This document shows positions 1,590 to 29,469 of a DNA stretch of 58,553 nt, one piece after another. Under the pieces are notes generated by a model. The model saw nothing but the letters and a program-made list of their open reading frames with translations, made no database searches and was not told where the DNA came from. The stretch's first letter is position 1; each line of letters opens with the position of its first letter. The position numbers and the translations under genes are program-made. The DNA lies in the IMG/VR virus record IMGVR_UViG_3300025000_000115, positions 1 to 58,553 of that record; one strand, 5' to 3'. This DNA is from a virus (taxonomy: Duplodnaviria > Caudoviricetes).

Positions 1590-3335
1590 TTACGCAGCGC
1601 CTTTCAGAGCACCGATGCCTGCATTACACAGACCCTGCTGGAACTCGTTGTTCAGGTTAAGGGTCTGACCGTCGCCTGTGCGGGCACAGAGGGCTACCCA
1701 CGAGCCAGGAGCACCACCGCCAGGACCAACAGCATTGAACACGCCGACAGTGTACTGCTCGGCTACCGGAGTGATTGCGGAAGCTGTCAGGTTGATGTAT
1801 GTAATTGCCAGAGTGTTGGCAGCAGAAACCCTGCATCCGGCAACAGCCAAACCAGCAGTCGCCGATGGCTTGTTGACGAATACCGTTGACGGGCTGGAGT
1901 TGATGAACGGCAGCGGGGTGACAGTGAACGTCTGTTCGGCTGTGGTATTGGCAGCCACACTCACGGGAGTCAGTGTCGGGGTGAGCACCGTGAACGGTAT
2001 TAACGGAGTCTGAGTCAGCACTGTGACACCATAAATTTCGGTCGCCGATGGCGTAACCGCTGCTGCTGACGCGTTGATGAACGGAACCTGAAGAGTATTG
2101 GCCGCGCTGACCCGACCAGTACCTGCCATAAGTCCTGCCGATACAGTCGGCTTGCTGACGCCGATAACAATGTCAGTAGCCAGCAGACCATTGACGGTCA
2201 GTGCTTGCTCGGCTGACGTAATGGACGCCACGGAAACCAGACCAGTACCGACAACGCCGTAGCTGGCTACGTGGTTGCAAGGAGGCAAGGTCATCAGACC
2301 GGCGATTCTGTACGCCTCAGAAGTGGGTGTAATTGCCACACTGGTTGCGTTGGCATAGGTGATTGCTATGCGGTTATTAGACACCACACGGGCGTTGGTT
2401 ACTGCAAGGCCAGCATCGGTAGTCGGTTTGTTGACGGCAATAGCCATACCAACCGAAATGTTGTTACCACCCAGGAAGGCAACAGTCGTGCTGCCGGAAG
2501 TGTAACCGGAGCCGGGGTTAGTAACCTGTACACCGATAACAGTGCCGGTGGAAGACATAATCGGCAGAGCCGTCGCACCTTTACCGGGACCAGGGTTAAT
2601 ACTAGGATTGCCGGTAAGCTGTGGGTTGACACCGTTGACTCCAGACAAACTCGGTGCATACTGAGTGTTTGACCCGGCAGCAATTGCGGCACCGGCGATC
2701 GTAGTATCCGTAAACACGATGGTCGGCGGCACGGTGTAGTTCGATCCAGCAGCAGTCAGCGTGACACCAGTAACCTGACCGGCGTTATTGACGGTAACAG
2801 TGCCGGTTGCGCTTACGGGTGTCAGGGCAAACTCCTGCTCGGCGACTGTGCCGATACCGGCAACACCGGAGCCAGGTACAGCGGCGGGTGTCAGGATCTG
2901 GCTGTGAACCGGCATACCGCGAAGCAGGGTTACGTTGTAAATCTGCCCTGCTGTAGGTGTCACGGCGGCGGCTGTTGCGTTCGACAGCACGAACTGAAGT
3001 GTGTTGGCGGCACTGATTCGCCCACCGTGGAAACCTGCACCGGCATTGGCTGTCGGTTTGTTGATCGCAGCAATGAAGTCGGTTGTGAGTGGGCCGTTAC
3101 CAGCGGTAGTGCCGACAGTCAGTGCCTGTTCAGCAGCGGTATTGGCAGCGATTGACGCTACGGTAAGTGTTTCCTGATAGGTGACGATCTGTGCGCCGAC
3201 GGTCGGAACTACCGGACCCTGCATACCACTGGCGCGTTGCGGTACTGGACCATTGCCGTAAAGCGAAACGGGATCGGTTGCATCTTTACCGAGAGTGATA
3301 CCGTCAATTGCGTCACCTGTGTAAGTTCTCTTCAT
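1590..3335 (-). CDS. Ala/Thr/Gly/Val-rich repetitive virion protein (head decoration or fibre candidate)
   Basis: Directly after coat gene; repeated NKPT..AGL...RVSAANTL modules and GSGY/GSNY-type beta repeats. Confidence 0.6.
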   Translation of the reverse strand: MKRTYTGDAIDGITLGKDATDPVSLYGNGPVPQRASGMQGPVVPTVGAQIVTYQETLTVASIAANTAAEQALTVGTTAGNGPLTTDFIAAINKPTANAGAGFHGGRISAANTLQFVLSNATAAAVTPTAGQIYNVTLLRGMPVHSQILTPAAVPGSGVAGIGTVAEQEFALTPVSATGTVTVNNAGQVTGVTLTAAGSNYTVPPTIVFTDTTIAGAAIAAGSNTQYAPSLSGVNGVNPQLTGNPSINPGPGKGATALPIMSSTGTVIGVQVTNPGSGYTSGSTTVAFLGGNNISVGMAIAVNKPTTDAGLAVTNARVVSNNRIAITYANATSVAITPTSEAYRIAGLMTLPPCNHVASYGVVGTGLVSVASITSAEQALTVNGLLATDIVIGVSKPTVSAGLMAGTGRVSAANTLQVPFINASAAAVTPSATEIYGVTVLTQTPLIPFTVLTPTLTPVSVAANTTAEQTFTVTPLPFINSSPSTVFVNKPSATAGLAVAGCRVSAANTLAITYINLTASAITPVAEQYTVGVFNAVGPGGGAPGSWVALCARTGDGQTLNLNNEFQQGLCNAGIGALKGAA

Positions 3336-18461: not shown

Positions 18462-18659
18462 TTATGCAGCGTGATTATTGATTGCGTCTGCAATTATTTC
18501 GGCGCTTAGTTTATTTTTTGCAGGGATATCAGAAAAATAATCATTCATATCAAGAAACCTTACGTTATAAACAATACTATTGTCAGTAAGTCTTACTTCA
18601 ACAACTTCCGCGACATTATGACTTGTTACTCTAATCGACTGGTGATTTGTCTTTGCCAT
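18462..18659 (-). CDS. Hypothetical protein, first gene after promoter
   Basis: CAGGAGG RBS. Confidence 0.6.
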   Translation of the reverse strand: MAKTNHQSIRVTSHNVAEVVEVRLTDNSIVYNVRFLDMNDYFSDIPAKNKLSAEIIADAINNHAA

Positions 18660-18700
18660 TTGCTGCCCTCCTGTTTGTATTTATTCCCGTCTATGATTAC

Positions 18701-18731
18701 CAGCATACAGTAATTTGATTATATGTCAACA
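18701..18731 (-). promoter_or_regulatory. Duplicated sigma70-like promoter, copy A
   Basis: TTGACA-16 nt-TATGCT; 29/31 identical to 22515-22545. Confidence 0.75.
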
Positions 18732-18776
18732 AAATAATCTAAATTATTTTAGCGGGTGGATCGGCTCCAGCCTGGG

Positions 18777-18880
18777 GGCTCCTGGCTCCTGGCTCCTGGC
18801 TCCTGGCTCCTGGCTCCTGGCTCCTGGCTCCTGGCTTTTGGCTCCTGCTCCTGGGGGCGGGCCTGGGGGCTCCTGCTCCT
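18777..18880. repeat. 7-mer tandem array (GGCTCCT)x8 plus degenerate copies
   Basis: Read directly from sequence. Confidence 0.9.
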
Positions 18881-18972
18881 GGGGGCGATCAGTCTTAATG
18901 AGAGAATTTTAATTAGAATAGGCTGTTCACAGCGCCCTGGGTGCATATACGGGCGGCAAACAGATTAAATCG

Positions 18973-19060
18973 TTTGGTCGGATTTTTATAAAATGTGTCA
19001 GGACAATTGGTGAGGGGCTTTGGTCGGATTTTTATAAAATACTGCTGGACAATTGGCGAG
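18973..19060. repeat. Two copies of a 42-bp unit, period 46
   Basis: TTTGGTCGGATTTTTATAAAAT-N6-GGACAATTGG(T/C)GAG at 18973 and 19019. Confidence 0.85.
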
Positions 19061-19062
19061 TC

Positions 19063-19089
19063 GGAGTGCTGTCTATCGGGCAGCACTCC
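19063..19089. terminator. Hairpin after the cassette-containing operon
   Basis: GGAGTGCTG/CAGCACTCC 9-bp stem; no clear U-tract. Confidence 0.45.
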
Positions 19090-19133
19090 TTAGTCCCGTC
19101 AAATGTTTTACATCAGAGCATAGGCATCACCTC

Positions 19134-19448
19134 CTAATCATAGACATATAACGGAGTACGTTTACATGATTTCCTGATTTTCTCCATTGCTGTGCTGAAT
19201 CCGCATTCCTGCCAAAATTGTCCGTCTACGTCGATTTTAAATCGGCCACGCCTGCTTCCTGGATGGAAGAGCAATACATGAGTTTGACCGGAAATCAGAT
19301 TGTCAACTGTGATTCTAATGCAGTCATTCGGGAGTTCAGGTGGATATGTTCGTGGGTTTTCGTCGTGATATTGTTGCCAACGCGCTTCTGCACCACGCCT
19401 GCCACGTTCTGAATTTTTCACCCTGCGTTGTTCACGAGTTAGTATCAT
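19134..19448 (-). CDS. Hypothetical protein (GRRGAEARW motif)
   Basis: ORF track; basic N-terminus. Confidence 0.55.
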   Translation of the reverse strand: MILTREQRRVKNSERGRRGAEARWQQYHDENPRTYPPELPNDCIRITVDNLISGQTHVLLFHPGSRRGRFKIDVDGQFWQECGFSTAMEKIRKSCKRTPLYVYD

Positions 19449-19498
19449 TTTACTATCCGCGCTTCCTTACATAATTAGGTTAATAGCTGGTTATGCGA

Positions 19499-19882
19499 CT
19501 ATACTCGTTTGCCGCCGCGCTTAAATTCCCTGTGCCGGTTCTTCTCGACTTTCGCCAGAATTGCAGCTTTGAGGTCGATCCCCATGCCATGAGAAAGACC
19601 GATCAACCGAATGCCCACGTCTGCAAGTTCTTCATCAAAATTGACACGATCTCCCTTGCGGAACGCTTCCAGTGCTTCGGCTACCTCGGAAACTATCAGC
19701 ATCAGAACAGCAGGGATTTCGTGCTTATCCTCCCAATCCTCAGACGTGGTTACTTTCCAGCCATGCAGGAGCTTGTTGGAATGTATTTCAGCACCAACAT
19801 CGCTTAACCAGTCGCCGCACACAGTCGGGCGGTCACTGGCTCTGATCGAATCTTCTATACCTTCATCCCATGTTGTACTCAT
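19499..19882 (-). CDS. MazG-like all-alpha NTP pyrophosphohydrolase
   Basis: LMLIVSEVAEALEAFRK...EELADVGIR...KVEKNRHR. Confidence 0.85.
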   Translation of the reverse strand: MSTTWDEGIEDSIRASDRPTVCGDWLSDVGAEIHSNKLLHGWKVTTSEDWEDKHEIPAVLMLIVSEVAEALEAFRKGDRVNFDEELADVGIRLIGLSHGMGIDLKAAILAKVEKNRHREFKRGGKRV

Positions 19883-19918
19883 TTCCTTATCCTTTCCGCC
19901 CGCTGGTGGGCTTGATCG

Positions 19919-20419
19919 TTATATTTTCAGAAACGCCACCCAATGAGTTTGGGCTTTTTTACCGCTACGGTGGCCGTATAGCGGCTGATGTGGTGTAAGC
20001 GCCAGAATGTCCCGCAGAGGTATTTCAGCATCACACCATTTAAAAATGAGCGTCCCCATCGGTTTCAGCACTCTGAAGCATTCAGCGAAACCGCCTGAAA
20101 TCATTGCTTGCCATCCGTCACCAAGTTTTCCATATTTCTTTTCCAGAATACCGGTACCAGTGCCGCCCAATCGCTTTCCGGTGTGGTGTGGCGGATCAAA
20201 AACAACGTGGAAAAACGAATCATCGTCAAAGGGTAGCGCCGTAAAATCAGCCTCAATGTCCGGCTTCACAGTTAGAATAGCGCCGTTTTTGTATGCCCTT
20301 CCCGGCTCCACGATAATATCCTCAGTTCTGCAATCTACGAACATGGCTCTTGCGTCCTTTTTATCCATCCACATCATTTTGCAGCTGCAACATGCGTCTA
20401 AAACAGGTGGTAATTGCAA
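19919..20419 (-). CDS. Cassette 1: phage-type class I SAM methyltransferase
   Basis: VLDACCSCKMMW, DFTALPFDDDSFFHVVFDPPH, ECFRVLKP.GTLIFKW. Confidence 0.85.
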   Translation of the reverse strand: MQLPPVLDACCSCKMMWMDKKDARAMFVDCRTEDIIVEPGRAYKNGAILTVKPDIEADFTALPFDDDSFFHVVFDPPHHTGKRLGGTGTGILEKKYGKLGDGWQAMISGGFAECFRVLKPMGTLIFKWCDAEIPLRDILALTPHQPLYGHRSGKKAQTHWVAFLKI

Positions 20420-20435
20420 TTTCGTCTCCTTGAAA

Positions 20436-20493
20436 ATATAACAAAACGCTCGAAGCCGACCGCTTCGCGGCGGTTCATCTCAAGCCGTTATAG
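20436..20493 (+). other. attC-like site 1
   Basis: ATATAAC AAAAC GCTCGAAGCCGACCGC TTC GCGGCGGTTCATC TCAAGCC GTTATAG; from memory, resembles aadA-type attC. Confidence 0.88.
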
Positions 20494-20736
20494 CGAACGC
20501 GATGGCTCGCATTTATCGCTGAATGAATCGGCAAGTTTTTCCAACGTGTCCAAGTCGCTGAACATGATTTTGCGGGATTTCTGATCGTCACCTGACCGAC
20601 AATGATCAACGATTATGCCGTAGAATTTGCCGCTATCTACACCCTGATAGGCATGAACTCGTATCATTGGAGTACAGATATTGCCTAATGTGCCGATTTC
20701 AACCACCTTCAAATCTTCAATTTTCTGAATCATCAT
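20488..20736 (-). CDS. Cassette 2: hypothetical protein (MMIQKIEDL...)
   Basis: GGGGG RBS; stop TAA lies in the GTTA core. Confidence 0.65.
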   Translation of the reverse strand: MMIQKIEDLKVVEIGTLGNICTPMIRVHAYQGVDSGKFYGIIVDHCRSGDDQKSRKIMFSDLDTLEKLADSFSDKCEPSRSL

Positions 20737-20752
20737 TGTCCCCCTGAAATCG

Positions 20753-20815
20753 CTATAACCAGTGCTCGGACGCCGCCCGATAAGGCACGGCGGGTCAAGC
20801 ACATGGTCGTTATAA
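20753..20815 (+). other. attC-like site 2
   Basis: CTATAAC..GTGCTCGGACGCCGCC..GGCGGGTCAAGCAC..GTTATAA. Confidence 0.82.
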
Positions 20816-20830
20816 TTCTTGCCGTAATTG

Positions 20831-21277
20831 TTACACCGAAGTGTCTAACGCTTCCACATCCCAAATTATTTCATGGGTGTCCTCTGGAAATCTCTCCCTC
20901 ACAATTCGCTGGGCAAACTCCAGAGCAAACTTAGGATCAGTAAACCCCAACTTCAGAGCGTCGTAATCTGCTGTCTCTGCGATCTCCTCGTATGGGATCG
21001 TATCATCCCAGTTCAAGCGGAAACCCTTATGCTCTTTTGGGTGATCCCATAGCACAACCTCTCTGAATCCATCCTCCTCTTGAATGAGTAGAGGAATGTC
21101 TTCAGCGGTGAATGAAACATAGTAATGGGTAGCGTTTTCATCTTCGTTTACCCATGTCGTTGCTTTAATAACCACCTTACGTTTGTATGCAGGAAACATT
21201 GCAGAGCGAAGTAAATGCGCCCAGTTGGGATAATTTTTTAAGTTGCCACCGAAAGATGAACCACACGATTTATACAT
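20831..21277 (-). CDS. Cassette 3: hypothetical protein (MYKSCGSSF...)
   Basis: AAGGAGGT RBS. Confidence 0.65.
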   Translation of the reverse strand: MYKSCGSSFGGNLKNYPNWAHLLRSAMFPAYKRKVVIKATTWVNEDENATHYYVSFTAEDIPLLIQEEDGFREVVLWDHPKEHKGFRLNWDDTIPYEEIAETADYDALKLGFTDPKFALEFAQRIVRERFPEDTHEIIWDVEALDTSV

Positions 21278-21314
21278 AATACCTCCTTGTCCTTTGTTCT
21301 GTTGCACCACCGAA

Positions 21315-21375
21315 TTATAACAATTGGCAGGGCGACGACGCGCTTCGCTTGCGTGTCAGCCGAAGCCCGTTATAG
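21315..21375 (+). other. attC-like site 3
   Basis: TTATAAC..GGCAGGGCGACG..CGTGTCAGCC..GTTATAG. Confidence 0.78.
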
Positions 21376-21624
21376 TGCTCTCTGATTCCATGCAGCGATT
21401 GCATTGTTCGCTATTGCAAAAGTCCCTTGCAATTTAGGCTGTACCGGACAGACTCCAAATGTCTCGCAGTTGACACTATGGACGCCAAAATGTTTTCTCA
21501 ACGTCGGTACTAATCCGCACCAGGGACAGGGGAGCAATTCAGCCAAAACAGGAGTGTCTGTTTTTGTGTCTGGACATTCTTCAGAGTGGTCAATATTGCA
21601 GTCGCAACAACTGATTTTCGCCAT
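21370..21624 (-). CDS. Cassette 4: Lar-like (restriction alleviation) zinc-finger protein
   Basis: LLPCPWCG...C....C...AIAAWNQRA signature; AAGGAGG RBS. Confidence 0.7.
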   Translation of the reverse strand: MAKISCCDCNIDHSEECPDTKTDTPVLAELLPCPWCGLVPTLRKHFGVHSVNCETFGVCPVQPKLQGTFAIANNAIAAWNQRAL

Positions 21625-21654
21625 TGAGTTTCCCTCCTTCGTGGCAACCCCGCA

Positions 21655-21716
21655 AGATAACCAGCGGCAGGTGCTTATTTCGCTGCGCTCAAAAGCACAG
21701 CCTTATGACGTTAAAT
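21655..21716 (+). other. attC-like site 4
   Basis: AGATAAC..GGCAGGTGCTTATTT..AAAAGCACAGCC..GTTAAAT. Confidence 0.8.
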
Positions 21717-21875
21717 TGACACTGGATTTCTGACCTCGTTAATACGGTCAAACGCCCACTTGTTTTCCGGCATGTCATGTAATCGAACAAACCCAACTCC
21801 AAAATCACACTGAACAAATTTTCCATCAGTGGATTCTTGTATCAACATTGCAAATTCTTTTTCTGAGATGTTCAT
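21711..21875 (-). CDS. Cassette 5: 54-aa hypothetical protein MNISEKEFAMLIQESTDGKFVQCDFG...
   Basis: Hand translation (not in ORF track); AAGGGG RBS; stop in GTTA core. Confidence 0.6.
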   Translation of the reverse strand: MNISEKEFAMLIQESTDGKFVQCDFGVGFVRLHDMPENKWAFDRINEVRNPVSI

Positions 21876-21891
21876 GATTACCCCTTTCACA

Positions 21892-21954
21892 ATTTAACCA
21901 GATAAATGCACTCTGGCTGCGATTCGCTTGCAGGTGATTTACAAGCCGTTATGT
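21892..21954 (+). other. attC-like site 5
   Basis: ATTTAAC..TAAATGCACTCTG..CAGGTGATTTA..GTTATGT. Confidence 0.8.
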
Positions 21955-22119
21955 TCTGCCTCCCCTGACCGCCAACACGACGGCGTGCCAAGCGTTCTGT
22001 TCTACAGGCGAACAGTGCTTCCACATATCCACCAGTTTTATTCCGTTTCGTGCATGATAATAAGCATTGCACGCCCGCTGTGCATCTTCTATCTGTTGTT
22101 CCAGGTTATCTTGCGGCAT
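21949..22119 (-). CDS. Small hypothetical protein whose TAA stop lies in the last GTT core
   Basis: GGAGG RBS before MPQDNLEQQ. Confidence 0.55.
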   Translation of the reverse strand: MPQDNLEQQIEDAQRACNAYYHARNGIKLVDMWKHCSPVEQNAWHAVVLAVRGGRT

Positions 22120-22300
22120 ACAGAACCACCTCCCTGATGTAGTCGCTGACGGTGCGCCCGTCGCGTTCAGCAGCAAGTGTGATCCTGGCAATCTCATCGT
22201 CATTATACCGCTGCATCAGCCGCCGGTATCTGGTGTCAGGTTTGGTGCTACCGACGTGACGACCTGCTCCTGGTCGAACACCGCCTCGTGGATTATTCAC
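22106..22300 (-). CDS. Small DNA-binding protein (RGG.R.GAGR plus RHH-like)
   Basis: RGGVRPGAGR...AAERDGRTVSDYIREVV. Confidence 0.7.
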   Translation of the reverse strand: MNNPRGGVRPGAGRHVGSTKPDTRYRRLMQRYNDDEIARITLAAERDGRTVSDYIREVVLYAAR

Positions 22301-22514
22301 CTGCCACCTCCCCGACGATTGGTTTCAACTGCACGTACTGCCGCGAAACCGATCAGAAGCATGACCAGTGTACTGCGGGCTTCGACTCTCATACCAACCA
22401 CCACCACAGTGCAGTTAACACTACAACCCACAACGTGACCACTATCCAAACTATTACACCACCGGTCGTTCTCTGGTCTTCTGTCTGACACATATAATTA
22501 ACCCTCCTGATACA

Positions 22515-22545
22515 CAGCATACAGTAATATGATTATTTGTCAACA
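22515..22545 (-). promoter_or_regulatory. Duplicated sigma70-like promoter, copy B (upstream of the cassette operon)
   Basis: TTGACA-16 nt-TATGCT; near-identical to 18701-18731. Confidence 0.75.
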
Positions 22546-23063
22546 GGTTTTATCACCAGATGTCCTTTTTCTTTCATTCGTTCTAATACTGACACGTTGT
22601 CTACTCCCCAAGCAATCAGCATTGACCCGCAACCTGCACCACTGCCGTCTGTAACCCCTAACCCGTCAACAAATTTGATCCTACCTGACAAAAACAAAAT
22701 TGCATCGGCTTTTGCCACATAGTCGTGATACCACTTGCAATCAGTTCGAGCGAAAAGCAATGATATACCGTTACGGTGTTGGTGCATTTTAGCTAACCAA
22801 TGGGTAGTAAATTTACCGTAAGGAGGGTTTAACCACACTCTACCACTCCACTGCTGTAATAACCCATCGTCCTGCTCTGTGTAATATTTCCAGACAGGTA
22901 TCCAAGGTATTCCGCCCACAGGTTGACAGGGATCGAGGTCAAAGATTACACCCATCTCTTCAAATATCGACGGGGGGGTGTACCAATCGACCGACTTATT
23001 TGCAGCACTATCATGTGTAAATCCCGTTGACCGCGTGCTCACCGTGCCACCCCACCGCCCCAC
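22533..23063 (-). CDS. Phage DNA N6-adenine methyltransferase (Dam-like)
   Basis: DWYTP, FDLDPC, VWLNPPYG, ARTD, GRIKF. Confidence 0.88.
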   Translation of the reverse strand: MGRWGGTVSTRSTGFTHDSAANKSVDWYTPPSIFEEMGVIFDLDPCQPVGGIPWIPVWKYYTEQDDGLLQQWSGRVWLNPPYGKFTTHWLAKMHQHRNGISLLFARTDCKWYHDYVAKADAILFLSGRIKFVDGLGVTDGSGAGCGSMLIAWGVDNVSVLERMKEKGHLVIKPVDK

Positions 23064-25360
23064 ACCTGACCGGCGACACTCGCACCGGCCTGTGCGTCCA
23101 GATATCTGCCGACTACATCTATAGGTCTGGTGAGCTGTCTGAGCAAGCTGTCTGACCGCACGTATAATACCGGCTTGCCACCTTCCGGCAATGCGTTATG
23201 CACCCTGCCGCCTGGTAGTGCCGGATGCTGAACGTACCCTAGACCTTCCAGTATCTCCCGACGTTTATTGCGACTGACGGCACGCTTGCCGCCTGCCAGT
23301 AATTTATCAAGCGCCATGCTGCTAATCCATCCGCCCGCGAATCCTGTCGCTCCCTGCTCGACCTGCTCCATGATTTCCTGCTCAACCACGCCCAGGCTGG
23401 CAACCATTGCTTCAGCGGTACTGGAGGTGCGCGGGGCATCGTGACAGTACGTCGCTGGGTTCAGCGCGTTAGGTATGGTGTAAGTCCGTAGGTAGTTATT
23501 CATTATGGCGAATCCTTCAGCACGCAGCCACTCGTACAACTTAGGAAAATAACCTGCCGTTCGCATACCGTCGCGGTCCAGGTCGCCCGCTTCCTGCTGG
23601 CCGGTGTAGAATATAGCATAACGCCTGTCGGTGCCGGTCTTGCGTATAGCGTCCTTGTGGTTGCTGCACAGGATGAAGTTCGCCCTATTGTCGCCGGTCT
23701 GCTGGTTCTGCCCTTTGCCCTGAATCTCTATGCGGTCGTTGGTAATCATCGGCTTCAATGTCTCGATCAGGTCAGCACGGTCAGACGTGTAGACTTCTTC
23801 GATACCGATCAGCAGTTTGCCTTGTAACCACGAATTGAATTTATTACTGAGGTCTTGCGCGTTGGGGAGGTGAGTGTACCGTGAGCCGATAGCGTGTGAG
23901 AGTGCTCGAATTATCATCGACTTGCCGTTACCCTCCATGCCGATCAGCAACGGACACCATTGGAATTTAATGCCAGGATGCTGCACGATTGCCGCCATGT
24001 ATGACAGCATTATTTCGTAGTCTGTCGGGTCAGGCAGCATCAGGTGTAAATGGTTCAGAAATCTCGTCGGGTCGCCCACTTTTATCTCGGTGATGAGCGG
24101 CATGTAGGTGTTGACCAGCATCCTGCCTTCTTCGTAGATCAACGCGCCAGGAGGACATTCAGGCCTGAAGCAACAATCATGCGCCTTTGGGAACGTGAAG
24201 CTCCGCGACCGGGCGAACGCCTCCCAAGCAGATTTAGTGCCCTTGCTGTTACCCTCTTCGATCATGAACTCGTAGCCACCCAGCCAGTTGTCGAACTGTC
24301 CCTGCTCGACTAAATCACCGTCAGGCATGAAAACCTTATGACAGGAGCGCACGTAGACACACCCTTTGAAATACTCCTGCTGACCCTGTATGGTGAGTAT
24401 CTGACCACCGCCCCGGTACTGACCTGTCGGTTCGTCAGGTCCTGGGACGGTGCGCGGTGGATCGGCATTCGGCGTGTCGCCGTAGACAGCCGTGCTGGAG
24501 CGTCCGAATTTGGATATGGTGAGCTGACCGTAAGTCTTACCCTGACCCGCTGAGCGGTCCCATTTGTCGCGCATGAGACCGCTCATACGGAACAGACGGT
24601 CGATGCGGTCACAGTCTCTGCCGGTCCAGAAGCTGAGGTGTGATACCAGAGCGGCGTCTGCTTCGGATTGACCGTCAGCGTCACAGATACCCGCCCACAG
24701 GTCTGATAGTGGAATGGAGTTGCTGAACGGATTGCTGCGGCTGGCAAGCATTCTGTCGATCAGTTCTTGGTCGTCGGTGGGACCACGCCATGCTGGATCA
24801 GGACCGGTGGACCACTCTGACGGAGTGACTGACGCACCGGGTGGGAAGTATGACTGGATGAGCCACTGGAACTGCTGGTCGCATAGGTGAGTCATGGAGC
24901 CGGTTGCCCCGGTGCCGGTCAGGGCTATAAAACGCAATTTTGTGTACGTCTCAATTCCCGCATCATGTACGTCACGGGTGCGGTGTTCCGGTAGTTGACT
25001 GACACTGCCGATGATATGCAGACCCTCGCCGCTGTAACTGACCTCCTGATAAGCACCGGCGAAATATTGACAGAGCTGCGTGGCAAGTGGCGACCAGCTA
25101 CCGTCTTCCAGCTTGCAGCGGTCGAGGTCTATAGCAAACAGCGGGTCGCGTTCGGTCAGGACTATGCCGACACCATGACCGACACCGGTAGCGACTGACA
25201 CCTGTGCGTCGGTATATGACAGCCAGATAGACGGGTCGTGGGCGTCGTGTGCCTTGCCGGTCAGTGGATGAACGGTTATTTTATCAGTTTTACCGGGTCT
25301 GGCGGCTGATGGACGGGTAATGTAAACAACATATTGGTTGCCAGGGTATAACCCGCTCAT
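23039..25360 (-). CDS. NrS-1-type primase-polymerase fused to SF3-like helicase
   Basis: AIDLD, EVSYSGEGLH, SEADAAL..LSFWTG..DRLFRMSGLMRDKW, Walker A GMEGNGKS. Confidence 0.88.
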   Translation of the reverse strand: MSGLYPGNQYVVYITRPSAARPGKTDKITVHPLTGKAHDAHDPSIWLSYTDAQVSVATGVGHGVGIVLTERDPLFAIDLDRCKLEDGSWSPLATQLCQYFAGAYQEVSYSGEGLHIIGSVSQLPEHRTRDVHDAGIETYTKLRFIALTGTGATGSMTHLCDQQFQWLIQSYFPPGASVTPSEWSTGPDPAWRGPTDDQELIDRMLASRSNPFSNSIPLSDLWAGICDADGQSEADAALVSHLSFWTGRDCDRIDRLFRMSGLMRDKWDRSAGQGKTYGQLTISKFGRSSTAVYGDTPNADPPRTVPGPDEPTGQYRGGGQILTIQGQQEYFKGCVYVRSCHKVFMPDGDLVEQGQFDNWLGGYEFMIEEGNSKGTKSAWEAFARSRSFTFPKAHDCCFRPECPPGALIYEEGRMLVNTYMPLITEIKVGDPTRFLNHLHLMLPDPTDYEIMLSYMAAIVQHPGIKFQWCPLLIGMEGNGKSMIIRALSHAIGSRYTHLPNAQDLSNKFNSWLQGKLLIGIEEVYTSDRADLIETLKPMITNDRIEIQGKGQNQQTGDNRANFILCSNHKDAIRKTGTDRRYAIFYTGQQEAGDLDRDGMRTAGYFPKLYEWLRAEGFAIMNNYLRTYTIPNALNPATYCHDAPRTSSTAEAMVASLGVVEQEIMEQVEQGATGFAGGWISSMALDKLLAGGKRAVSRNKRREILEGLGYVQHPALPGGRVHNALPEGGKPVLYVRSDSLLRQLTRPIDVVGRYLDAQAGASVAGQVWGGGVAR

Positions 25361-25725
25361 ACCTCACCGCCAGCCAGCGTGAGTGCCGCTTCCTGTTTGA
25401 GTGCCTGTGGTGCTGTCATAGCCACAGGATGCCGGTGTGCCAGACCTTCACCCACCACGCTGAGAACACGACGCCTCACCGCTTCATGCATCACGGCTGT
25501 TCTGAGGTCACTTGCCGTCTGATAGTAATGACTCACGAGCGCCTGACTGACACCGGAAGCTATTGCCACACGCACCAAGCTTATGGCGGTGTAGCCGTGT
25601 GTCTCGGCAAGTATAACAGCAGCAGCCAGGATAGCAGCCTTACGGTCGGCGGGGTGTTGACGGTGACGATAGAGGGTGGGGGTGGTCATGTCAGGCTCCA
25701 TTGGTCGGCAAATGCTTCCGACCAT
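25357..25725 (-). CDS. TetR-like HTH protein
   Basis: RKAAILAAAVILAETHGY..VAIASGVSQALVSHYY. Confidence 0.75.
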   Translation of the reverse strand: MVGSICRPMEPDMTTPTLYRHRQHPADRKAAILAAAVILAETHGYTAISLVRVAIASGVSQALVSHYYQTASDLRTAVMHEAVRRRVLSVVGEGLAHRHPVAMTAPQALKQEAALTLAGGEV

Positions 25726-26333
25726 CCATTATATGTTCGACTGCGTTCTTTCCATCTGTTGGGTCTGGGTGTAAGTTTGTTCTGCCCGCTGTCGGTCTGG
25801 TTGCCCCACCGCTTTTTGCCATCAGCCGTGATGCGAGGGGCGACCAGACATGTCGGCTGTAATGGTGGTAAGTTCTTTATCCACAGGCAGGTTTTCTTGC
25901 TGGCGTCATCTCCATACTCATTCGGCTGAATATATTGTGTCGGTGGCATGAAAACTGATGATAGTACACCAACTGGGTTTTCAATTGCTATGTGTTCAAT
26001 CGGTGCGTTCCATAGACATTGTACAAACTCAATTGCTCTCTCTCTTGCTTCTCTACGGGCAGTTCCTACGAGTGTTTCCGGTAAGACTTTCTGGTGGTAA
26101 GGCCCATCACCGTACGCCCATTCTGAACTGTTGGTAAGATAAGTACAATCAGGGTGAAAAATACCCAAGTCCCATCCGTAAAATGGTGTCAGTAGCAGTC
26201 GCACGTCACACTGTAAGTGGTATGGACTATTATCTTCGGCAGGCAACAGGTCACACGACCAAGCATTATGACCACGGCGGCGGAACGATTCACGCGTGCG
26301 ACCTGACGACTCACAGCCGATCAGTACGTTCAC
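25686..26333 (-). CDS. Short phage DNA cytosine-methyltransferase-like protein
   Basis: VLIGCESSG, AWSCDLLP, FHPDCTYL, IAIENPV, KKTCLW, ERSRTY; GTG start at 26333. Confidence 0.75.
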   Translation of the reverse strand: MNVLIGCESSGRTRESFRRRGHNAWSCDLLPAEDNSPYHLQCDVRLLLTPFYGWDLGIFHPDCTYLTNSSEWAYGDGPYHQKVLPETLVGTARREARERAIEFVQCLWNAPIEHIAIENPVGVLSSVFMPPTQYIQPNEYGDDASKKTCLWIKNLPPLQPTCLVAPRITADGKKRWGNQTDSGQNKLTPRPNRWKERSRTYNGWSEAFADQWSLT

Positions 26334-26797
26334 AGTTCCTCCGGTGATGTGATGAACGCTGCACGTCCACCCATCTGATTGATGAAAGTTATAAAGGCTA
26401 GTTGCGCCCGCTCTCGGTCGGTGGCTGTGTAATGCCAACCAGTGGGCTTACACTCATACCCCGTGAAAACACCATACAGACGACCGCAAGGACAGGTGAC
26501 GGGTGTAACTCCTACCAGGTCAGGTGACTTGACTTTATTATTGATTGCTGGCGTGTCGTTGCAAAGTCCGTAGCGCACTGGCCTCCCGTTTTCTGCGGTT
26601 GCTACGCCTGAGTTGTTGCGGAAAAGCCGTCCGTAAGTCCGTTTGGCGTGCTCTATCCTCACAGCGTTCTGCACCGCAGCCTCACTGCTGGGTGCTGCCG
26701 TGCTACTGTCTGGCGTCATGGCGGCTCCGAGACAGGTAAGCAGGTCGGTCAGTGCGGCTGGTGGGATGGACCAACGGATTGCCCATGCGTGGATCAT
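26330..26797 (-). CDS. VRR-NUC-like PD-(D/E)xK nuclease
   Basis: SEAAVQ, LFRNNSG, PDLVG, YECK, AQLAFI..GGRAAF. Confidence 0.8.
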   Translation of the reverse strand: MIHAWAIRWSIPPAALTDLLTCLGAAMTPDSSTAAPSSEAAVQNAVRIEHAKRTYGRLFRNNSGVATAENGRPVRYGLCNDTPAINNKVKSPDLVGVTPVTCPCGRLYGVFTGYECKPTGWHYTATDRERAQLAFITFINQMGGRAAFITSPEEL

Positions 26798-28637: not shown

Positions 28638-28803
28638 ATGATAAGCCGACCCCCTCGGTTGGTGAAATGTAACTTAATCTCAATTGATAGTCGTGTCAAT
28701 TATTTTCTTCGGTATGCAAAATAAATATTGACAGCAGGGTCGTGATATGATTTTATGGTCATACGGAATCGCTAGAGGCAATAAATTACCGGGGAGGATA
28801 ATC

Positions 28804-29469
28804 ATGCGGAGAACGGAACTGACAACAACATTTGCAAAATTGAAAGCAACATCAGCCTACGAATCAGGTTACAAAAAACTTGCACAACATCTCGGTGGTA
28901 TCACCAAGTATGGCAAAGACACGCCAATCAATCTACTGACAATACTGGAGTCAAACGGTGTTGACGACATGATGTGGTCGTTACGTGCTGTTGATAATCC
29001 TGACGTTGAACGAATCGCTCGTTTTATTGCCTGCGATTGTGCTGAAGCATCACTCGTTGAGTATGAGGAATACACTCCAGATGACAACAGACCACGTGTA
29101 GCCATTGAGACTGCTCGGCGTTTTGCTGATGGTACAGCAACTCAAGAAGAAATGTCGGCAGCACAGTCGGCAGCACAGTCGGCAGCAGAGTCGGCAGCAT
29201 GGTCGGCAGCACGGTCGGCAGCATGGTCGGCAGCATGGTCGGCAGCACGGTCGGCAGCATGGTCGACAGCACGGTCGGCAGCACGGTCGGCAGCAGAGTC
29301 GGCAGCACGGTCGGCAGCACGGTCGGTAGCAGAGTCGGCAGCACAGTCGGCAGCACAGTCGGTAGCAGAGTCGGCAGCATGGTCGGCAGCATGGTCGGCA
29401 GCACAGTCGGTAGCAGAGTCGGCAGCAGAGTCGGCACAAGCTGAAATAATCAAAAAATATCTGAAATAG
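28804..29469 (+). CDS. Imm5-like domain protein with SAA(W/R/Q/E) tetrapeptide repeat
   Basis: IACDCAE...[17 protein letters not shown]; 12-nt tandem repeat at about 29154-29436. Confidence 0.7.

Follow-up and report, generated by a model that had tools for sequence, protein, structure and literature searches.

A probable integrase-less cluster of attC-type sites carrying anti-restriction-type cassettes in an uncultured groundwater phage

The described systems closest to the locus considered here are the integrase-less clusters of attC sites (CALINs) of phages. In a screen of 10,705 phage genomes published by Qi and co-workers in 2023, 17 CALINs and five methyltransferase cassettes were reported, IntI1 recombined five of the six phage attC sites tested, and the authors propose that such cassettes protect phages against host restriction (PMC9892861). 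The subject of the present analysis is an array of five small genes at positions 19919-21948 of a 58,553-nucleotide stretch of DNA (the window), which is the whole of the virus record IMGVR_UViG_3300025000_000115. This array is probably a CALIN in a tailed phage of about 58.5 kb, composed of five single-gene cassettes, two of which would encode anti-restriction-type functions. A CALIN is recognised by at least two close attC sites with no integron integrase nearby, and this is the arrangement found. Phage CALINs with methyltransferase cargo are thus already in print and the window array adds another instance. It shares with those of Qi and co-workers, as the main text of that paper describes them, the presence of several attC sites, the lack of an integrase, the single-open reading frame (ORF), co-directional cassettes and the methyltransferase cargo. 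Unlike them, it belongs to an uncultured groundwater relative of Sashavirus-like siphophages, includes a Lar-family cassette and has its genes on the attC bottom strand; a term search of the main text returned neither Lar nor genes in reversed orientation. Full-text literature searches returned no other paper on the cargo of phage CALINs and none on reversed polarity in phage cassettes.

Classical integrons offer a further comparison, represented here by the class 3 integron of plasmid pEMB2 and by the chromosomal arrays of two bacterial genomes (G002 and G005). The window array resembles them in the length of its sites (58-63 bp), in their AAC/GTT boxes around an imperfect stem, which at site 1 appears to have extrahelical bases, in the detection of site 1 by a model that also detects class 3 attC sites, in the private complementarity of its cassette ends and in the presence of relatives of its methyltransferase cassette inside such integrons. 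It differs from them in being a phage array without IntI, attI or Pc, in having its five genes antisense to the canonical cassette orientation and transcribed in a phage operon, and in that sites 2-5 are not recognised by the models. Sedentary chromosomal integrons, in turn, have been presented as banks of anti-phage defence cassettes (bioRxiv 10.1101/2024.07.02.601686), a report that likewise sets integron cassettes in the arms race between phages and bacteria. As described there, those cassettes defend the bacterium, whereas in the window the array stands on the phage side and carries counter-restriction genes.

All five units lie on the minus strand, each ORF is preceded by a purine-rich ribosome-binding site, and imperfect hairpin sites of 58-63 bp occupy five consecutive intergenic gaps at a spacing of 238-569 bp. 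Cassette 1 (19919..20487) encodes a putative orphan type II-like DNA methyltransferase of 166 amino acids (aa; ORF 19919-20419, TTG start after AAGGAG) and is followed by attC site 1 (20436..20493, 58 bp), for which the minus strand is the bottom strand. Cassette 2 (20488..20809) contains ORF 20488-20736 for an 82-aa protein of no known family and adjoins attC-like site 2 (20753..20815, 63 bp). Cassette 3 (20810..21369; ORF 20831-21277) specifies a 148-aa acidic protein, also of no known family, and is bordered by attC-like site 3 (21315..21375, 61 bp), whose box includes the stop codon of the next gene. That gene, ORF 21370-21624, encodes the 84-aa Lar-family restriction-alleviation protein, with eight cysteines, of cassette 4 (21370..21710), and it is followed by attC-like site 4 (21655..21716, 62 bp). 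Cassette 5 (21711..21948) holds ORF 21711-21875 for a 54-aa acidic protein of no known family, and attC-like site 5 (21892..21954, 63 bp) closes the array, its box containing the stop codon of a 56-aa ORF (21949-22119). The stop codons of five genes, those of the methyltransferase, the 82-aa protein, Lar, the 54-aa protein and the 56-aa ORF, are the TAA of a box. An earlier reading of the sequence alone (the sequence-only reading) had named five cassettes, with a methyltransferase, a Lar-type protein and unknowns of 82, 148 and 54 aa, and all five ORFs are present on the minus strand; it had placed the array at 19919..21875, of which the start holds, while the array extends to 21948, position 21875 being the start codon of the 54-aa ORF.

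The architecture of the sites is that of short attC sites. All five have TAAC...GTTA boxes 58-63 bp apart, end to end, around an imperfect hairpin fold; for the short attC sites of mobile integrons a length of 57-70 bp is reported, and their bottom strand is described as having extrahelical bases opposite the AAC arm (PMC5027507). In the folds, read by hand, the minus strand of site 1 has three bulged bases (T, C and G), separated by 3-bp stems, on the GTT arm; sites 2-5 have mixed bulge patterns. The pattern TAAC-N44-49-GTTA occurs 11 times in the whole record and five of these matches fall within a stretch of 1.6 kb; 200 shuffled sequences averaged 5.08 matches, no 1.6-kb stretch held more than three matches, and none of the 200 reached the observed clustering. 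The strict pattern RYYYAAC...GTTRRRY is matched by none of the five sites. A generic detector of boxes plus hairpin gave 43 matches in the window against 24-31 in shuffles, and was dropped for want of discrimination.

Membership of the attC family was examined with covariance models built for this purpose from the sites flanking relatives of the methyltransferase, gathered from 50 metagenome and 39 genome loci. Inspection by eye of 22 metagenome and 18 genome loci indicated that the closer relatives, of roughly at least 55% identity, lie for the most part between hairpins bounded by inverted AAC/GTT boxes; relatives of 47-54% identity in Corynebacterium, Rarobacter, Pasteurella and Alcaligenes have no such box and hairpin flanks by the same inspection. 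The window sequence was left out of the first two models. Model R1, from ten short sites of five loci and with a consensus that looks like a classical attC, recovers the pair of attC sites in the class 3 integron of pEMB2 (43.0 bits, E 1.4e-9; 39.1 bits, E 1.3e-8). Run unfiltered on the window, R1 gave one significant match, which is site 1 at full length on the minus strand (25.6 bits, E 3.2e-4). Across 88 loci it yielded 50 sites at E <=0.05, from which R2 was rebuilt, and R2 found site 1 again (26.8 bits, E 4.2e-4). On these matches site 1 belongs to the attC family, the only one of the five for which membership is established, and sites 2-5 are attC-like by the architecture they share with it. 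On the MazG side of the array a minus-strand segment at 19798..19928 may be a half-site or possibly a long degenerate attC; its box at 19918-19924 contains the methyltransferase stop codon and its R2 match is not significant (12.9 bits, E 0.68). No clear partner for this box was found before the MazG start; an equivalent ..TAAC box lies upstream of MazG in two other viral loci (L109 and L110). A second family of flanking repeats, of about 90 nt and with GACGAAC/GTTCGTC boxes, was seen by eye around methyltransferase relatives of 57-60% identity at six loci (L010, L013, L015, L017, L021 and L022), and it is missed by R1.

Each unit also bears a mark of its own. On the plus strand, the bases after the G of a GTT box pair without mismatch with the ..AAC box at the other end of the unit; the match is 12, 10, 10, 5 and 9 bp long in units 1 to 5, all other box pairings giving at most 7 bp, and four of the five cassettes have private terminal inverted repeats of 9-12 bp. 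Such private complementarity is the footprint expected if a crossover at G|TT releases each unit in circular form, although the test is symmetric and fixes neither the polarity nor the assignment of hairpins to genes. Viewed on the plus strand, the array opens with a lone GTTATAT at 19918 and closes with the full site 5 followed by TTATGT, a pattern expected from the insertion of cassettes into a secondary GTT site; insertion driven by the integrase outside att sites is reported in 10.1101/2022.09.11.507474.

The polarity of the genes can be read from the models, since the sites behind R1 and R2 were taken on the strand that encodes the methyltransferase relatives. Their matches in pEMB2 fall on the strand opposite to blaGES-1 and aac(6')-Ib, and at three true IntI loci (IntI at 400-494 bits) the R2 matches are on the intI-coding strand; therefore R1 and R2 are bottom-strand models, in keeping with the position given for extrahelical bases in PMC5027507. 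Since they match the strand on which both the window genes and the methyltransferase relatives are encoded, these genes are on the attC bottom strand, opposite to ordinary integron cassettes, whose ORF is on the top strand. The same reversal is seen in bacteria. In a Methylophilaceae array with 12 model matches (L075), nine of 13 inter-site gaps have their longest ORF on the opposite (top) strand and the cargo is typically chromosomal (TspO, DUF488, BrnT/BrnA, HXXEE), with the methyltransferase (L075:8001-8471) inverted relative to the other cassettes. In G002, a Verrucomicrobiae genome, the first cassette beside IntI (437 bits) is the methyltransferase (L094, about 2723-3196), which lies on the intI strand and antisense to the other cassettes. 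Reversed polarity, found thus also in the methyltransferase cassette of a complete bacterial integron, bears on how cassettes are expressed and on why bacteria hold such cassettes.

Evidence of turnover comes from assemblies and from related loci. DNA nearly identical to the record was found in four sequencing runs from two groundwater samples of one study, which are possible source samples. The Logan unitigs of these samples break at sites 1 and 2, with branch points at site 1 at 20437-20448, and one unitig of 347 nt (20448-20794) runs from inside site 1 to inside site 2 and covers the whole 82-aa ORF. A variant contig has the 5' end of the methyltransferase in common with the window and diverges right after the TAAC of site 1; its arrangement is that of loci L004-L006, with an 85% identical methyltransferase, a phage with DNA polymerase A and a different attC ahead. 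A second variant contig joins at 20437 from a different sequence, the match to a methyltransferase copy 87% identical begins exactly at 19919, and a 90%-similar copy of the interior of site 5 is found in another context on a 159-nt contig. The MazG gene next to the array is common to three viral contigs (L108, L109 and L110) at 78-84% identity, and L109 and L110 (78-81%) carry other cassettes upstream of it, in the same place as the window array. L110 is Mu-like (late activator PHROG 836), and three R2 matches (E 3.4e-5 to 4e-3) bracket there a 34-aa ORF and the 78% identical MazG. L109 has sites of the window type, and a PAPS-reductase-like gene with an 11-bp private repeat lies directly upstream of its MazG. 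No such sites were seen by the MazG of L108, and two distant primase relatives (L001 and L002, 43% identity) have no attC matches and no cassette genes in common with the window.

Two of the five genes can be named. The 166-aa protein matches PHROG 954 'DNA methyltransferase' (1.1e-56), PADLOC MTase_II over residues 6-165 (1.2e-52) and the orphan methyltransferase model (1.4e-39); the D75-P76-P77-H78 of motif IV is conserved without exception in the 16 relatives aligned, the sole Pfam match, to Methyltransf_11, is below threshold, and a profile search for a relative in the PDB found none. The 84-aa protein matches Pfam PF14354 (Lar_restr_allev) at 31.2 bits against a cut-off of 28.6, residues 29-83 covering profile positions 2-58 of 58, and PHROG 599 at 2.3e-4. 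Lar alleviates EcoKI restriction. The window protein is like the Lar of the Rac prophage (PF14354) in being small and rich in cysteines, with a C-terminal AAWN motif and a score above the gathering threshold, and unlike it in that this score is just over the cut-off and in an N-terminal extension of about 28 residues. No solved relative of it was found, and a scan of viral contigs gave relatives of 30-36% identity only. By family, both genes would thus have anti-restriction-type functions. The DPPH and Lar motifs quoted in the sequence-only reading are present in the translations and agree with these profile matches. Its view that the cargo differs from typical integron cargo is not supported in the form given, as methyltransferase relatives of 49-60% identity sit in true bacterial integrons, beside IntI in G002 and in the 12-site chromosomal array; homologues in chromosomal cassette families, which it had named as counter-evidence, accordingly exist in part, for the methyltransferase. 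It had also asked whether homologues are attC-flanked elsewhere; most of the closer methyltransferase relatives inspected have flanks with AAC/GTT boxes and hairpins.

Other phage-like arrays with bottom-strand genes are, by their profile matches, rich in DNA-modification genes. The L019 array has in order an ORF of no family, a Mom-like gene (PHROG 1384, 1.1e-32), a methyltransferase, a second ORF of no family, another methyltransferase and a PHROG-954-like methyltransferase, the latter directly followed by a 33% relative (L019:5548-5859) of window ORF 19134-19448. In L018 the order is an ORF of no family, an endonuclease VII/HNH-like gene, an MT-A70 methyltransferase and a PHROG-954-like methyltransferase. 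The array of L058 adjoins DnaB, a DnaD-like loader and a PAPS reductase.

The other three proteins belong to very small families so far seen in metagenomes only. The 82-aa protein has 12 relatives of 67-90% identity, all metagenomic; the 148-aa protein has six close relatives and ten clusters among 1.84 billion representatives; and the 54-aa protein has five relatives of 82-87% identity. The 148-aa protein is acidic (isoelectric point 4.8, net charge -11), as is the 54-aa protein (isoelectric point 4.8). Scans of viral contigs gave nothing for the 148-aa protein, as single sequence or alignment, nothing for the 54-aa alignment and a 21-residue match only for the 82-aa protein alone, and the ESM Atlas had no usable match for the 148-aa or the 82-aa protein. 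An AlphaFold2 model of the 82-aa protein (pLDDT 74) has four strands followed by a helix. Resemblances of this model to Pur-alpha and PC4-like four-strand-plus-helix folds (Z 4.1-4.5) and to Ugi (Z 3.8) fell within the noise of the tool, as did those to Tad1 and HI1450 (Foldseek E above 0.3). The argument for these three proteins as inhibitors is their position in the array and their association with the named genes. The array nominates them, very rare as they are, for screening against restriction and other defences.

A scenario for the array can be proposed on this basis. Its starting point would have been an insertion into a GTT that lay between the 56-aa gene and MazG, and its cassettes would be exchanged by an integron integrase of the host, proposed because the phage has none, acting on attC hairpins folded in single-stranded phage DNA. 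The genes would be read by phage transcription from a promoter-like module at 22543-22516, each with its own ribosome-binding site. The orphan methyltransferase would pre-methylate phage DNA, Lar, to judge by homology, would blunt type I restriction, and the three cassettes of no family may serve counter-defence. If the sites are active, a phage of virulent type could swap anti-restriction genes singly by means of a host integrase; it would thereby be able to adapt its host range quickly, and genes could pass between phages and bacterial integrons.

Several observations weigh against this reading. The phage carries no integrase. With R2 site 2 reaches 10.2 bits (E 3), sites 3-5 are reported by neither R1 nor R2 at E <=10, and a third model, R3, built from sites 2-5, detects none of the classical attC sites of the class 3 integron or of the IntI loci at E <=1, its matches being confined to three borderline sites (E about 0.015) in the phage locus L109. 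The Lar unit has kept 5 bp of end complementarity and has lost its private repeat; the Lar assignment itself stands just above the cut-off, its function being taken from the family name. The cargo is not exclusive to phages, methyltransferase relatives occurring both in bacterial integrons and in phage arrays. The 82-, 148- and 54-aa proteins have no match in Pfam, PHROGs, NCBIfam or PADLOC; the sequence-only reading had called them unknown. The 82-aa model has no significant fold match in the PDB or BFVD (best Foldseek E 0.026, VIA Z 4.5), the 148-aa model (pLDDT 51.8) is unusable and was not taken to a fold search, and the sole viral relative found for the 82-aa protein, 55% identical, is an ordinary phage gene (L102) without attC flanks; in L102 this gene is preceded by a small gene of ribbon-helix-helix type, and a 64-aa ribbon-helix-helix ORF (22106-22300, minus strand; NikA-like, sub-threshold) overlaps the start of the 56-aa ORF just upstream of the window array. 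The shufflable anti-restriction island of the sequence-only reading is hence retained as to the integron-type units, the two of five genes with anti-restriction-type functions and the content that differs between related loci, and its three candidate inhibitors keep the argument of position, with neither a family or fold match nor an attC-flanked viral relative to add to it.

Some of these features would suit a fossil, that is, a piece of a bacterial integron taken up once by illegitimate recombination, whose genes are now ordinary accessory genes between decayed hairpins. The absence of an integrase, the failure of sites 2-5 in the attC models, the lost repeat of cassette 4 and the mere half-site on the MazG side agree with it, and no cassette-skipping contig was seen among the source-sample contigs, which say little on this point. 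Such a fossil is nevertheless unlikely, as four of the five units retain perfect private repeats of 9-12 bp, branches of the assembly graph fall at sites 1 and 2 in those very samples, and L109 and L110 carry different cassettes beside a MazG of 78-81% identity. The array is real, and probably active or recently active. The sites could also serve another recombinase, Xer-like or a phage tyrosine recombinase, or short-homology recombination at the boxes, with the likeness to integrons being one of appearance. Homology breaks, both in the samples and against L005, at the box by the gene start, whereas the canonical bottom-strand crossover is at the other box, a further point against the integron reading, from which it follows that either both strands recombine or another process acts; recombination of both strands is reported for short attC sites (PMC5027507) and is one possible source of these breaks. 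The reversal of the genes relative to classical cassettes points the same way, as does the six-site array of L019, which lies about 1 kb from a 332-aa non-IntI tyrosine recombinase (L019:6571-7569, minus strand; PF00589 6.7e-12) whose best NCBIfam matches are Xer models at 21-22 bits and which has no similarity to the IntI of G002. Set against this, one and the same model finds the site family of the methyltransferase relatives, the class 3 attC sites and the sites beside three true IntI genes, and in G002 the methyltransferase cassette directly adjoins IntI, so that a different recombinase appears improbable. Least credible of all, and very improbable, is that the hairpins are transcription or RNA-processing signals (terminators or RNase sites) between ordinary phage genes. 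All of them are intergenic and on one transcribed strand, and a terminator-like hairpin ending in a T-rich tail was called at site 1 as well. Against it stand the presence of the tail in one of the five sites only, a search over 18500-23200 of Rfam, which has no attC family, that gave nothing relevant, the private inverted repeats around each gene, the match of site 1 to the attC model and the relatives of the methyltransferase unit in bacterial integrons.

Beyond the CALIN reading, a wider picture may be put forward with considerable doubt. Phages and bacterial integrons might share a distinct pool of reverse-polarity cassettes with anti-restriction genes (for methyltransferases, Lar, Mom-like proteins and new inhibitors, among which the acidic proteins of 148 and 54 aa might rank) that would be transcribed in phages and silent, antisense to Pc, in bacterial integrons. 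Host integrases would then unknowingly operate a library from which infecting phages borrow counter-defence genes, with the place just ahead of MazG as a site where cassettes land repeatedly.

The MazG-like nucleotide pyrophosphatase gene (19499..19882, minus strand; Pfam MazG 8.3e-6, PHROG 3301 7e-18) lies directly downstream of the array in the direction of transcription, and a lone GTTATGC box (19490-19496) is found 2 nt past its stop codon. MazG may be a former or actual cassette instead of a flank; as a sixth cassette it would have a long attC over its start, for which the R2 match has E 0.68 and the box complementarity, judged by eye, is only 4 bp. Farther downstream, ORF 19134-19448 (minus strand) encodes a basic 104-aa protein, an 85% DNA relative of which adjoins an attC-like end in the source samples, and this ORF may be another array-associated gene. 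Upstream of the array, the Dam-like methylase gene (22533-23063) is 585 bp past the last attC-like site with three small ORFs in between, so that of the position between MazG and a Dam-like methylase given in the sequence-only reading the first neighbour directly adjoins and the second does not. The sigma-70-like module TTGACA-16-TATGCT on the minus strand at 22516..22543, recognised by its match to the consensus, probably drives an operon of the three small ORFs, the array, MazG and ORF 19134-19448. A near-identical promoter-like module, with a 16-nt spacer that is mostly alike, occurs on the minus strand at 18702..18729, and the pair brackets the array operon. Close to the latter, a short tandem repeat is found at about 18750-18870, where a plus-strand ORF has APGSWLL three times, and the Logan word depth in the bin 18667-18833 is about threefold above that of the neighbouring bins.

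The record as a whole is that of a virus of 58,553 bases with a CheckV completeness of 97%. Profiles of TIGR02249 (integron integrase) and PF00589 (tyrosine recombinase) had no match in it, while both were detected in 14 of 14 control genomes, and a nucleotide search of a phage collection with the record gave no match. By Pfam and PHROG profiles its replication set is of phage type and comprises a primase-helicase, an SF2 helicase, a B-family DNA polymerase, ThyX, a Gp2.5-like single-stranded DNA-binding protein and exonucleases, and the polymerase shares about 51% identity with its counterparts in Sashavirus-like siphophages, which infect enterobacteria. The phage encodes three DNA methyltransferases, each from a family of its own: that of PHROG 954 in the array (19919-20419), the Dam-like one (PF05869/PHROG 111, 22533-23063) and one of PHROG 757 (25686-26438). 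The minus strand is the coding strand of all genes from 14 kb to 28.6 kb; among them the primase-helicase (23039-25360) has an NrS-1 polymerase-like helix-bundle domain, and an Imm5-like protein is encoded on the strand opposite at 28747-29469.

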